Sequence record: PZ583738.1
Strand: one strand, 5' to 3'
Length of the DNA: 64,000 nt
Origin: a phage
Shown: positions 32,415 through 47,063 of the stretch, one piece after another
How the letters are laid out: every line of letters begins with the position of its first letter
Numbering within the stretch: position 1 is the stretch's first letter
Notes under the pieces: model-generated
What the model saw: only the letters and a program-made list of their open reading frames with translations
Databases searched by the model: none
Told to the model about the DNA's origin: nothing
Made by a program: the position numbers and the translations under genes

Positions 32415-33380
32415 ATGATGTTAGTTATTGGTTCTCGTGCATTACATAACGCTGGTCTGATTGAAAGTCAGAAAATTGAAAACTCTGATTGGGACTTTAT
32501 CGCTGACCAAGGCTCCTGGAACCACTTTAAAGCACGTATGTTCGGTGCTCATGTTCCTGTGGATAACCCTAACGTCCAAGCTTTTAAATGTATGTACAAT
32601 GGCAAAGAAACCTATTTTGAAGCTTATATTGTCCGTGCCCTGACCAACGTACGAGAAATTACTGGTGAGCTTCAAGACGAAGATTTCACCTCAAGTTATC
32701 GTCTCCTGAAATATGCTGAAAATCATATTAAAAAAGATCGTCTTACAGGTTTTTACTGGGCAACTCCTGATATTTGTCTGGCAATTAAATTATCTCATCG
32801 TTACCTGAAGAACAATCCATTCTTCCTGAAGACCATGAGTCATATTAATTACCTTCGCAATAAGGGTATTGTTCTTAATGATGAACTGCAGAAAATCATG
32901 CTGCAGCGTCAGGCAGAGACACTGTCATACAGTCACCCTAAACTAGACGTGGGCAAGAAAACTTTCTTTAATGATACAATCTATACCCTTGACCATGACT
33001 CCATCCACGAGGCCGTGGCGCTTGCTGATAAGCCTGCATATAAGTTCTATATGAAGGATGATTCAGAAGTCATGACCTCGCGTGAAAAATTTGAAGCACT
33101 CCCTGATGTTATTAAACTGGCAGGGGTTTATGAAGAAGCATGTGTGCTCGCTCTGGAGCGTTCGCAGGTTCCTAATGAGTTCAATATCTCTCCATCCGTG
33201 AGCTTCCATATTGCGCTGGAAAAAGTCTGCACCTCCATTACGTCTGGATGGTTTCGCACCTTCGCATATGAAAATTACGGCAAAATTATAAGTATGTATA
33301 ATGCTTTAGGTCATGACGATTATATTAAACGTTTTAAGGCTAACCAGCATTTAATTAAACCATTCAAAAAGGATGAATGA
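32415..33380 (+). CDS. hypothetical protein with possible nucleotidyltransferase-like N-terminal motif
   Basis: 321 aa; VIGSRALHNAG..ENSDWDF loosely fits hG[GS]x(n)[DE]h[DE]h; otherwise unrecognised. Confidence 0.5.
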   Translation: MMLVIGSRALHNAGLIESQKIENSDWDFIADQGSWNHFKARMFGAHVPVDNPNVQAFKCMYNGKETYFEAYIVRALTNVREITGELQDEDFTSSYRLLKYAENHIKKDRLTGFYWATPDICLAIKLSHRYLKNNPFFLKTMSHINYLRNKGIVLNDELQKIMLQRQAETLSYSHPKLDVGKKTFFNDTIYTLDHDSIHEAVALADKPAYKFYMKDDSEVMTSREKFEALPDVIKLAGVYEEACVLALERSQVPNEFNISPSVSFHIALEKVCTSITSGWFRTFAYENYGKIISMYNALGHDDYIKRFKANQHLIKPFKKDE

Positions 33381-40521: not shown

Positions 40522-40881
40522 ATGGTAAGAGTTATCACTTTAGCCATAGGGTTAGTATTCAGCATGGGAGGAATAGCTTCAGTACAGAGCGATGACAACA
40601 ACAGCATCATAGAATATGCAACGAGGACGGCTAAAGATTATTGCGCAGCAAGCAATGTGGATTGTGTAATCCAGTTCAGTGCCAAGCTCACCGCAGCCTA
40701 TAAAGATGGCCAAAATGATGTTGAACATACGCTTTTGAAAAAGAATGTATTATCCAACAAATATGAAAAGAAATTATTTGAAATGGATTGCATTCTATCA
40801 AGTGCAAAATATAAGGCGGCCTGCACCAGTATGGTTGACAGGTTAGTGGATTCATATAATAGAGGATTGAACTCTAAATGA
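40522..40881 (+). CDS. secreted/periplasmic protein of unknown function
   Basis: 119 aa; N-terminal signal-like hydrophobic segment; four cysteines. Confidence 0.45.
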   Translation: MVRVITLAIGLVFSMGGIASVQSDDNNSIIEYATRTAKDYCAASNVDCVIQFSAKLTAAYKDGQNDVEHTLLKKNVLSNKYEKKLFEMDCILSSAKYKAACTSMVDRLVDSYNRGLNSK

Positions 40882-41351
40882 TTACCCAGTATATTAAGGG
40901 CGATATCGTCGCCCTCTTTCTTAGTGGTAAAAACATTGCACATGGTTGCAATTGCTTCCATACAATGGGTTCAGGCGTAGCTGGTCAGTTGGCGAAGGCT
41001 TATCCAAGGATTTTAGAAATAGACAAAACCTCAACCGACTATGGTTACAGAGGAAAACTCGGTGATATGTCTATTGTTTTCAAATATTCCCGAGGTCCGT
41101 CAACTTGCTTTAATCTTTACACCCAATATGAACCAGGACCAAATCTTGATTATCATGCTTTAGTAAATTGTATGGTAGAATTAAATCGAGTCCTGAGTGA
41201 AGGAACACTATTCCGACCAGTGGTTTATATCCCACGGATTGGATGTGGTATTGCAGGTGGAGATTGGGAAAAGGTCTCTATGTTAATTGATATTTTTACC
41301 CCTGACATTGATTTGATAGTGGTGGATTATGAGCCAAGCCCGAATTCTTAA
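40878..41351 (+). CDS. macrodomain (ADP-ribose-binding/processing) protein
   Basis: 157 aa; GDIVALFLSGKNIAHGCNCFHTMGSGVAGQL fits macro-domain N-terminal signature; second glycine-rich motif IGCGIAGGDWE. Confidence 0.55.
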   Translation: MITQYIKGDIVALFLSGKNIAHGCNCFHTMGSGVAGQLAKAYPRILEIDKTSTDYGYRGKLGDMSIVFKYSRGPSTCFNLYTQYEPGPNLDYHALVNCMVELNRVLSEGTLFRPVVYIPRIGCGIAGGDWEKVSMLIDIFTPDIDLIVVDYEPSPNS

Positions 41352-45146: not shown

Positions 45147-45599
45147 ATGATTATCAATGCAAACTCTTGGCACGTTAAATTACACGACCGTTTTTATGAC
45201 CGTCATTCTCGACCACACTCTTTGTGTGCTTACTTCTGGAAAATGGTTTGGGCTTGTTTTGTTTGTGCTATTGCTGCAGGTAGTATTGGTTTTGGATTAA
45301 CTGTTGCTGGCGCTGGTGTATTAGAGCATTTCTTTGTATTAAGTACTCCTGTTGGTTTGGGTTTGGGTTTTATTTTAGGACTAGCTACGCTGGCTCTTAT
45401 TCTGGCAGTCGCATTTGGTTTGATGTATGGTCTAATGAATCTATGGACCTGGTATGATTTACGTAAAGAAGAAAAGGAATGGCAACGCATTAAAGCTGAG
45501 CGTGAAGGCCGAGAAACTAAAGAAAACGTTTTCATTCAATATATCAAAGCTCGTAAATCTAAGATGTGTCCTATAATCCATTTTGAGGCGAAGAAATGA
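45147..45599 (+). CDS. membrane protein
   Basis: 150 aa; two glycine/alanine-rich transmembrane helices. Confidence 0.5.
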   Translation: MIINANSWHVKLHDRFYDRHSRPHSLCAYFWKMVWACFVCAIAAGSIGFGLTVAGAGVLEHFFVLSTPVGLGLGFILGLATLALILAVAFGLMYGLMNLWTWYDLRKEEKEWQRIKAEREGRETKENVFIQYIKARKSKMCPIIHFEAKK

Positions 45600-46606
45600 G
45601 AACAGTTATGAAAGGCTACTTCGGTAGCCACCTTTATGGAACAAGTACTCCAGAATCTGATGTCGATTTTAAAGAAATCTTTGTTCCGCATCCTCGTGAT
45701 ATTCTACTTGGGACGGCGATGAACCATACCAACCTGAACACGAATAACACGGCTACCAAAAATACAAAAGATGATGTTGACCATGAGCTTTACAGTCTGA
45801 AATATTTCTTTAAACTAGCGGCTGAAGGCGAAACCGTTGCTCTGGACATGATTCACACCCCGGCTGACCTGGTAGTCAAATCCGATTTGCCAGATGTATG
45901 GAAGTTTATCCAGGATAACCGTTCACGGTTTTATACAACTAACATGAAAGCCTATTTAGGGTATGTCCGTAAGCAAGCTTCCAAATATGGTGTTAAAGGT
46001 TCTCGATTGGCTGCACTGCGTGGTGTACTGGCAATCGTTAACCAGATTCCTGAACAGTGGGTCGACTATCAAGAAGGAATCCCTGATAGACTTCGTCGTA
46101 CTAAGGTAGAAGATATCAAACACAGACTCCCTGAAAACGAGTTCTGTGAATGGGTATTCCATAACCATGAGAAAACAGGTCCACAAACGTTCTATACTGT
46201 TCTCGGACGTAAGTACCAAACCACCTTGTCTTTAATCGAGCTCAAGCAATCTCTGAATAAACTCGACGCCGAATATGGTGAACGTGCTCGTAAAGCAGAA
46301 GCTAACGAAGGTATTGATTGGAAAGCACTGAGCCATGCTTATCGTGCAGGGTATCAATTGATGGAAATCTACCAAACAGGTGACTTGGTATTCCCATTGC
46401 GTGAAGCCTCTATCATTAAGCTGATTAAAGCTGGTGAATTACCATTTAAAGAAGTTCAAGAACTTCTTGAAGATACTGTCGATTTAGTTGAAGTTCTGGC
46501 CATCCAGGCTGCTAAGAATGGTATGCCTGATAAGGTAGACATGAAGTTCTGGGACAAGTTTGTTGAAGAGGTATACCTTGACAACCACAATTCCTATTAT
46601 CGTTAA
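45596..46606 (+). CDS. polymerase-beta-superfamily nucleotidyltransferase-like protein
   Basis: 336 aa; N-terminal YFGSHLYGTSTPESDVDF matches the hG[GS]x(9-13)DhD nucleotidyltransferase signature. Confidence 0.55.
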   Translation: MRTVMKGYFGSHLYGTSTPESDVDFKEIFVPHPRDILLGTAMNHTNLNTNNTATKNTKDDVDHELYSLKYFFKLAAEGETVALDMIHTPADLVVKSDLPDVWKFIQDNRSRFYTTNMKAYLGYVRKQASKYGVKGSRLAALRGVLAIVNQIPEQWVDYQEGIPDRLRRTKVEDIKHRLPENEFCEWVFHNHEKTGPQTFYTVLGRKYQTTLSLIELKQSLNKLDAEYGERARKAEANEGIDWKALSHAYRAGYQLMEIYQTGDLVFPLREASIIKLIKAGELPFKEVQELLEDTVDLVEVLAIQAAKNGMPDKVDMKFWDKFVEEVYLDNHNSYYR

Positions 46607-46613
46607 TGAAGAA

Positions 46614-46802
46614 ATGAAGGTCTTCTTATCATACGGAAGACCTCATAAAGGTCGGCGATGGTATCTCGAAGCAGTCTGTCGGGAAACTGGTCGTCGAGTC
46701 AATATCAAGTACACATGCAAACCAACACCCAAGCAAACTCGCAGGTTTGCTAATTGGGCTATCAATAATATCAGATTCCATAATTTTTGGAGTGCAATCT
46801 AA
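46614..46802 (+). CDS. hypothetical basic small protein
   Basis: 62 aa from ATG 46614. Confidence 0.4.
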   Translation: MKVFLSYGRPHKGRRWYLEAVCRETGRRVNIKYTCKPTPKQTRRFANWAINNIRFHNFWSAI

Positions 46803-46826
46803 GGACCCCTCGGGGTCCTTTTTTAT
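46803..46826 (+). terminator. rho-independent terminator
   Basis: GGACCCC-TC-GGGGTCC hairpin followed by TTTTTT. Confidence 0.75.
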
Positions 46827-46886
46827 TTTAAAGGTGTACAAACTTGTCTCTGTTGATGCATAATGAATTTTTACTAAGGAGCCATT

Positions 46887-47063
46887 ATGAATCATATGAG
46901 ACCTCGCGTATCCAAACAAACGCGCGAAGAAGCGATTGAACATTTTAAACGCCATCATGGAAGTCAATCATGTGAGGTGATTGTTGGTATCGACATAGAA
47001 AAGATGAAGGAAACTGCCAAGCACTACCAGGGCAGGATTGATATTAAAAATTATATAAAGTAG
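46887..47063 (+). CDS. hypothetical small protein
   Basis: 58 aa; SD TAAGGAG; not in ORF track (<60 aa). Confidence 0.35.
   Translation: MNHMRPRVSKQTREEAIEHFKRHHGSQSCEVIVGIDIEKMKETAKHYQGRIDIKNYIK

Follow-up and report, generated by a model that had tools for sequence, protein, structure and literature searches.

A predicted long-form RlaP nucleotidyltransferase, the NrdC.11 ortholog of a T4-like Gaprivervirus, and its proposed part in RNA repair

Nucleotidyltransferases (NTases) of the RlaP family were named in 2016 for their association with RNA ligases (RNA-ligase-associated Pol-beta). For jumbo phages, a survey reports that RlaP and RNA ligases parallel each other in their distribution, and the family was predicted to put back, before ligation, the nucleotides taken by nucleases such as RloC (PMC7824862). 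Here, we analyzed a candidate member of this family that is encoded on a phage DNA of 64,000 nucleotides (sequence record PZ583738.1), hereafter called the window. The gene occupies positions 45596-46606 (including the stop codon) on the plus strand and is the ortholog of T4 nrdC.11. Its general assignment has a history: RefSeq names the orthologs "nucleotidyltransferase", and the assignment, then made via COG3541, goes back to 2006 (PMC1524935).

The best-described members of the family are two RlaPs from Pseudomonas, PfRlaP and PaRlaP, whose genes lie between rtcB and rtcA and which were presented in a preprint of 30 December 2025 (PMC12776372). Both enzymes add one to two nucleoside monophosphates (NMPs) onto the 3'-OH of RNA, using any nucleoside triphosphate (NTP) and also dATP. 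They prefer Mn2+ and, within a cleaved-tRNA mimic, the end at the break, and they are inactive on DNA and proteins; E. coli proteins were not labeled. Aminoacylation of a tRNA that lacked one nucleotide of the anticodon loop was partly rescued by the RlaPs. The crystal structure of PfRlaP revealed an N-terminal NTase domain and a C-terminal helical domain, the last helix of which packs onto the NTase domain, together with three strictly conserved aspartates. T4-type ligases, unlike RtcB, take the 3'-OH product made by RlaP and require precisely this kind of end. The same preprint lists T4 NrdC.11 as a member of the RlaP family, in cluster 5 of the sequence similarity network (SSN) (all PMC12776372).

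The window protein scored 48.4 bits with the Pfam model RlaP/PF10127 ("RNA repair pathway DNA polymerase beta family"), for which the gathering score is 23 (E-value 1.3e-12). The match comprises residues 8-135 and reaches profile positions 25-143 of 249 only. PHROG 388 ("nucleotidyltransferase") aligns with residues 1-335 (E-value 5.6e-131). T4 NrdC.11 (NP_049709.1) has the same length of 336 amino acids and the same catalytic residues, and it is 80% identical over 336/336 residues without a gap. The genetic setting is shared as well. The gene is flanked by mobD.1 upstream and by nrdC.9, nrdC.8, and nrdC.6 downstream, as in Shigella phage SP18 and T4, and its position within the pre-replicative tk-nrdC region, with mobD.1 on one side and nrdC.9 on the other, is the same. 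The immediate neighbors differ, however, from those in T4, which carries the homing endonuclease gene mobD directly upstream of nrdC.11 and nrdC.10 downstream, whereas the window has a coupled gene for a 150-residue membrane protein upstream and a DUF7279 mini-gene downstream. By these comparisons, positions 45596-46606 encode the T4 NrdC.11 ortholog, a long-form member of the RlaP family. Full-length homologs of the NrdC.11-type protein are contained in 1443 phage records. An exhaustive search returned 3246 cluster representatives (50% clustering) that match the window protein, and a precomputed PF10127 hit was present in every homolog among the matches listed. The ortholog is already known: its T4 counterpart is catalogued, and its family has been named, modeled in Pfam, assigned a likely role, and, since late 2025, studied biochemically; the window itself adds very little that is new, its nrdC.11 being a routine ortholog of that gene.

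The labels in public records are less uniform. In GenBank and UniRef, NrdC.11 orthologs are often called "thioredoxin", and some are entered as "HNH homing endonuclease", "ArsR family regulator", or "hypothetical". The thioredoxin label was presumably inherited from the name of the neighboring nrdC gene. Mislabeled records ("thioredoxin", "HNH endonuclease", "hypothetical") should read RlaP-family nucleotidyltransferase.

The reading frame runs from an ATG at 45596 to a TAA that ends at 46606, and the N-terminus of the 336-residue product is MRTVMKGYFGSHLYGTSTPESDVDF. A Shine-Dalgarno sequence (GAGG, 45585-45588) is located 7 nt 5' of the ATG. In some records, the alternative start M5 is used for the ortholog, resulting in a protein of 332 amino acids.

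The sequence-only reading of this DNA had singled out the 336-residue open reading frame (ORF) by an hG[GS]..DhD signature, had proposed a Pol-beta-type nucleotidyltransferase, and had named a remote-homology search, a structure prediction, and the search for a third catalytic acidic residue as checks. The frame was confirmed, and the signature proved to be specific. A strict form of it (h-G-[GS]-x8-20-D-x-D-h within the first 80 residues) was found in 2/83 window ORFs of at least 100 amino acids, whereas shuffled ORFs gave 0.18 ± 0.44. Thus, the GS...DxD motif is no chance match. The two ORFs are exactly 45596-46606 and 32415-33380. The Pol-beta assignment agrees with the Pfam and PHROG matches and with the modeled fold, the homology search placed the protein in RlaP, and the third acidic residue turned out to be D62.

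To judge the conservation of these residues, we used an alignment of 124 homologs with 25-95% identity; the positions of nrdC.11 motifs and domains given below are on the plus strand. Within the hG[GS] motif (45623-45628), G10 is retained in 124/124 and S11 in 123/124 sequences, and both align with the GS of canonical RlaP. The catalytic aspartates of the DxD motif (45659-45667) are just as constant, with D22 in 124/124 and D24 in 123/124, and they align with the SDYD of canonical RlaP (78/78). The third catalytic carboxylate, D62 (45779-45781), is found in 124/124 homologs and corresponds to the third Asp (LDV) of canonical RlaP, again in 78/78. At the position of a fourth acidic residue, D84 (45845-45847), 85 of the 124 sequences have a glutamate and 37 an aspartate; the canonical equivalent is a glutamate in 77/78. 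The C-terminal half contains a second cluster of invariant residues, G228, K243, H247, and R250. The latter three constitute a helix motif, K243-x3-H247-x2-R250 (46322-46345, each residue 124/124), which is presumed to bind NTP or RNA.

The AlphaFold model of the protein has a mean predicted local distance difference test (pLDDT) score of 90.8 and a predicted template modeling (pTM) score of 0.78. It comprises an N-terminal Pol-beta NTase core of approximately residues 1-95 (45596-45880), composed of strand 2-9, G10-S11, strand 23-30, strand 61-67, and helices 68-85. The remainder, approximately residues 99-336 (45890-46603), is a mostly helical domain that contains a three-strand beta insert (184-208) and terminates in a long helix (316-335); its extent follows from the secondary structure of the model, hhalign, and the reach of the Pfam match. 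In the core, strand 2-9 runs into G10-S11, D22 and D24 are located at the start of strand 23-30, and D62 opens strand 61-67, which is the third-carboxylate position in Pol-beta-fold enzymes. The assignment of the triad rests on this strand topology, on conservation, and on the alignment to canonical RlaP. Sequence searches of the PDB, run with the protein alone as well as with a profile of the 124 homologs, returned nothing meaningful. HalB, 3c18, kanamycin NTase, and LinB, all of them Pol-beta NTases, are the closest solved folds; the structural neighbors also include AadA, DrrA, and MNT antitoxins. As judged from the model, the window protein is a Pol-beta-fold NTase with an intact G-S/D22-x-D24/D62 active site.

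The structural neighbors resemble the window protein in architecture. Kanamycin NTase ANT(4'), LinB, and 3c18 likewise join an N-terminal Pol-beta NTase to a C-terminal helical bundle that makes the substrate cleft. They use, however, small-molecule acceptors and share 8-10% identity with the window protein at template modeling (TM) scores of ~0.3. HalB of the Hailong system (PDB 9dbh/9dbj) differs in being a host defense enzyme whose oligo-dA signals are produced independently of an RNA primer; at 13-14% identity, it has no sequence-level relationship to the window protein.

Membership in other NTase groups was rejected throughout. Pfam returned no CD-NTase, OAS, or SMODS hit (E-value up to 1), and PADLOC gave a defense NTase match of only 17 residues around the motif (PDC-S09, E-value 0.004). 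The MntA antitoxin model scored 15.4 bits compared to a cut-off of 60. For NTP_transf_2, the score was 15.2 bits compared to 21, and the G-S...D-x-D stretch (residues 8-26) alone accounts for the match. Scores for aminoglycoside NTases were below threshold or absent. The lack of a hit to the PolyA_pol head domain (PF01743) argued against a class II CCA-adding enzyme or poly(A) polymerase (PAP).

The relation to the canonical RlaPs of P. fluorescens and P. aeruginosa, which are encoded in rtcB-rlaP-rtcA operons (PMC12776372), is one of shared Pfam family, catalytic residues, and NTase plus helical domains. The two types differ in size. Canonical RlaPs comprise ~250-265 amino acids, whereas the NrdC.11 type comprises ~330, with an extra region of ~100 residues that includes the beta insert. 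A canonical RlaP of 259 amino acids, tested for comparison, scored 222.8 bits and covered the entire Pfam model. In hhalign, a profile of 78 canonical RlaPs matched the NrdC.11 family with a probability of 90% and an E-value of 1.7e-6. The GS, DxD, and third-Asp positions and the acidic residue that comes next line up between both families and are present in 77-78/78 canonical RlaPs. The alignment is confident only for residues 1 to ~135 and for the C-terminal helices. A hidden Markov model (HMM) built from canonical RlaPs alone misses the window protein (E-value up to 1), so that the link needs the broader Pfam model or a profile-profile comparison. Canonical RlaPs contain a K-x3-Y-x2-R motif (78, 77, and 77 of 78) with a spacing equal to that of K243-x3-H247-x2-R250. 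We infer from the sequences that both motifs mark equivalent helices, which the long-form insert would set apart from the core.

Some bacterial genomes contain both types side by side. In 16/80 bacterial loci that were fetched with a canonical RlaP, a long form of the NrdC.11 type is its direct same-strand neighbor. The two genes are -40 to +35 nt apart in 14/16 pairs, and the catalytic residues are kept by both partners. The paired loci span several bacterial phyla (for example, L079:4001-5839 and L031:4007-5801; L020 and L021 are alike). The presence of two catalytically intact types next to each other suggests that the long and canonical forms are not redundant. By these sequence criteria, the long form is a distinct paralogous subfamily that often resides next to the canonical one. 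The tandem pairs suggest a division of labor, on which the publications, dealing with single enzymes, are silent. The window holds one long-form RlaP, and a search with the canonical HMM revealed no canonical RlaP in the window. At one chromosomal locus from a Thermodesulfobacteriota member (L028:1279-4771), a series of genes on one strand encodes DUF6088 (AbiEi-like), the NTase toxin AbiEii, and then RlaPs of the long and of the canonical form.

What, then, is the function of NrdC.11? We consider it probable, though by some distance from certain, that NrdC.11 restores nucleotides on damaged tRNA or other RNA before ligation, as an accessory of T4 RNA repair. This proposal is based on the assayed Pseudomonas RlaPs and on the gene neighborhoods of clade members. 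D22, D24, and D62 would hold two metal ions, probably Mn2+, and one to two NMPs would be transferred from NTPs, without a template, to the 3'-OH of a broken RNA. The likeliest substrate would be a tRNA whose anticodon loop was cleaved by anticodon nucleases of the host. PseT, the polynucleotide kinase-phosphatase, would first heal the ends to 3'-OH and 5'-phosphate, NrdC.11 would then replace the nucleotide trimmed off by a nuclease such as RloC, and RNA ligase 1 or 2 would finally reseal the full-length tRNA. Such an enzyme would serve as an accessory counter-defense that the phage could do without on ordinary laboratory hosts. In keeping with an accessory gene, the nrdC.11-mobD.3 segment was lost in a viable genome-reduced T4 (PMC9825161).

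Outside the T4-like phages, the neighborhoods of clade members connect the gene with RNA repair at several loci. In Sinorhizobium phage phiM12, Rnl2-type and Rnl1-type ligases are encoded 4-5 kb on either side of the NrdC.11 homolog. Marine viral contigs carry a PF09414 ligase gene 0.6 kb upstream of the NrdC.11-clade gene, and on one phage contig, both Thg1 and an RNA ligase are encoded no more than 5 kb from it. On two other contigs, a gene for an AAA_33 (Pnk-type) kinase overlaps the NrdC.11-clade gene or is located 4 kb off; in Pfam, the kinase domain of PseT is assigned to AAA_33 as well. The close relative SP18 encodes pseT, rnlA, and rnlB, unlinked to nrdC.11. The association with RNA-repair genes holds at the level of the NrdC.11 clade and not at the window locus.

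Several observations weigh against a role in break repair. No RNA-repair gene adjoins nrdC.11 in the window or in T4, and the SP18 genes pseT, rnlA, and rnlB are tens of kilobases away from nrdC.11. Several clade loci are without an RNA-repair neighbor, three of the contexts showing nothing relevant. Among the loci without such a neighbor is that of the jumbo Vibrio phage D479, in which the neighbors of the NrdC.11 homolog are without Pfam hits, and several cellular contexts were uninformative. Moreover, the association is drawn from individual loci. On the protein side, the region of approximately residues 140-265, to which the beta insert and the invariant K243/H247/R250 helix belong, is without a confidently aligned canonical counterpart. 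In the NTase superfamily, it is usually the C-terminal domain that determines the choice of substrate. The addition to RNA 3'-OH ends was demonstrated for enzymes of SSN cluster 1a, whereas the NrdC.11 clade belongs to cluster 5, and, as the authors concede, untemplated addition would give the correct, normally modified wobble base only in a minority of events (PMC12776372).

Among the other explanations, the closest one retains the chemistry and changes the end on which it acts. NrdC.11 might be an RNA 3'-end NTase aimed at the acceptor (CCA) end of tRNA, where it would rebuild or cap ends that were damaged or blocked by host toxins, such as 3'-trimming RNases, toxic alarmone synthetases that pyrophosphorylate tRNA, or tRNA-tailing toxins of the MenT/AbiEii type. 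In Vibrio phage 1.084.O, the NrdC.11-clade gene overlaps the end of a gene for an NTase with a PolyA_pol head (PF01743, CCA-adding/PAP class), and at two unrelated alphaproteobacterial or prophage loci (L016:6471-7993 and L018:6378-7984), the clade gene shows translational coupling with the gene upstream of it, which encodes an HD_4 protein of the SpoT/small-alarmone-hydrolase type. One of the bacterial tandem RlaP pairs directly follows an AbiEi-like/AbiEii toxin-antitoxin pair. The connection of HD_4 and AbiEii with tRNA 3' ends is, however, inferred from few loci, whereas the neighborhoods with ligase, kinase, and Thg1 genes indicate break repair. Furthermore, T4 relies on the CCA enzyme of its host, which counts against this reading. 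The assayed RlaPs also labeled full-length tRNA-sized and single-stranded RNAs (PMC12776372), but they favored the 3' terminus of the cleaved-tRNA mimic's 5' half over an acceptor-like end. Taken together, we regard an acceptor-end function as unlikely, albeit worth keeping in mind.

Two further readings would move NrdC.11 away from RNA ends altogether, and each appears highly improbable to us. In one of them, the enzyme would make or consume a nucleotide second messenger or a short oligonucleotide, in the manner of CD-NTases, OAS, or Hailong HalB, and would thereby jam immune signaling of the host. The similarity to HalB is confined to the fold (Foldseek E-value ~5e-3), the Pfam and PADLOC searches described above gave at most the short motif match, and the assayed RlaPs halt after one to two additions on an RNA primer. 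Besides, the window already has Acb1, a known signal-degrading enzyme directed against CBASS (cyclic oligonucleotide-based antiphage signaling system). In the other reading, NrdC.11 would nucleotidylate a protein, as the AMPylators MntA and DrrA do, or a small molecule, as do the aminoglycoside and lincosamide nucleotidyltransferases. Kanamycin NTase, LinB, AadA, DrrA, and the MNT antitoxins are indeed among the fold neighbors, and the weak motif-level MntA hit points in the same direction. Against this stand scores below every family cut-off, including those of NTP_transf_2 and MntA, the failure of the Pseudomonas RlaPs to label E. coli proteins, and a window locus in which no HEPN or other toxin partner adjoins nrdC.11.

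Restoration of nucleotides prior to ligation is therefore, in our assessment of these readings, the role to be preferred for NrdC.11. The sequence-only reading had considered the substrate to be beyond inference from sequence and had named interference with nucleotide signaling and nucleotidylation of RNA or protein as candidates. The first point was too cautious with regard to the family, which has a name and biochemically characterized members in Pseudomonas; it stands insofar as the exact role of the T4 clade would still be assigned by analogy. Among the candidates, nucleotidylation of RNA is favored, and the other two are without a family-level hit.

A more specific version of the proposal takes the peculiarities of the long form into account. 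The extra module of ~100 residues, the invariant K-x3-H-x2-R helix, and the co-translation with canonical RlaPs in bacteria might reflect a distinct function of long-form RlaPs. Standing alone in T4-like phages, the long form could then be the missing third enzyme of Pnkp-Rnl1 tRNA repair, which defeats RloC-type nucleases or 3'-end-damaging tRNA toxins that were thought to be "repair-proof". We offer this idea tentatively and would sooner bet against it than for it. If the T4 clade does restore the nucleotides removed by RloC, the textbook T4 tRNA-repair pathway gains a third enzyme, and such restoration would also decide if "repair-proof" anticodon nucleases can be overcome.

The second motif-bearing ORF of the window, 32415-33380 (321 amino acids), had been noted as a weaker GS..DxD candidate and proved to be no false lead. 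It matches Pfam DUF7277 and DUF7275 as well as PHROG 2141, which is annotated as "unknown". In 74 homologs, G6, S7, D25, D27, and E69 do not vary, and conservation of the C-terminal domain is extreme. The structural model (pLDDT 91.7) displays an NTase fold similar to MenT and ANT(2''). As far as the model can tell, the protein has a true NTase fold of the MenT-like type; it is uncharacterized and the more novel of the two window NTases. A homolog is carried by 732 phage records, nearly always as "hypothetical protein", and we found no mention of DUF7275 in the papers that were searched. Comparison of the NrdC.11 family with the family of 32415-33380 by hhalign gave no relationship (probability 0.7%); paralogy between both NTases of the window could not be detected with sequence profiles.

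The window belongs to the genus Gaprivervirus of T4-like myoviruses. Over the 3.2 kb that surround nrdC.11, identity is 94.9% with Escherichia phage MN01 and 90.9% with SP18. Upstream, on the plus strand, a gene for a predicted membrane protein of 150 amino acids extends from 45147 to 45599; it is annotated as "membrane protein" in SP18 and in phage vB_EcoM_RZ, and a Pfam search yielded no above-threshold family. Its stop codon shares bases with the ATG of nrdC.11 (ATGA). Because of this stop/start overlap, both genes are probably translationally coupled.

Downstream, the same transcription unit continues on the plus strand with a gene for a basic protein of 62 amino acids (46614-46802), which scores 37.7 bits for Pfam DUF7279. 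Full-length tblastn matches to this mini-gene were obtained in 212 phage records, down to ~40% identity. It is left unannotated in MN01, SP18, and several other relatives. The nrdC.11 unit is closed on the plus strand by a hairpin resembling an intrinsic terminator (46801-46830), with an 8-bp stem including five G-C pairs and a subsequent T-run. The closest relatives, among them phages vB_EcoM_RZ (L014:2626-3372) and DK-13, carry an extra coding sequence (CDS) of ~750 bp on the reverse strand just downstream of nrdC.11. It is annotated as "tail needle knob" and is absent from the window (about 46800-46890), MN01, and SP18. The query coverage of 92% for records of the RZ/DK-13 type results from this insertion.

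Three other features of the window are recorded here. Approximately 4 kb upstream of nrdC.11, the tk.4 homolog (40878-41351, plus strand) encodes a Macro-domain protein (28.3 bits compared to a threshold of 22); in SP18, regB and vs homologs are located nearby. Two neighboring tRNA genes, tRNA-Met(CAT) and tRNA-Arg(TCT), occupy 26004-26156 on the plus strand, and SP18 has three tRNA genes (Arg, Asn, and Met) at the equivalent place. The gp57B homolog (22531-22986, plus strand) corresponds to the anti-CBASS protein Acb1 (Pfam PF23474, 200 bits). The SP18 annotation of 57B would have made it a linked "RNA ligase", a candidate that we rejected on the basis of the Acb1 match; the RefSeq label in SP18 looks like a mis-annotation.

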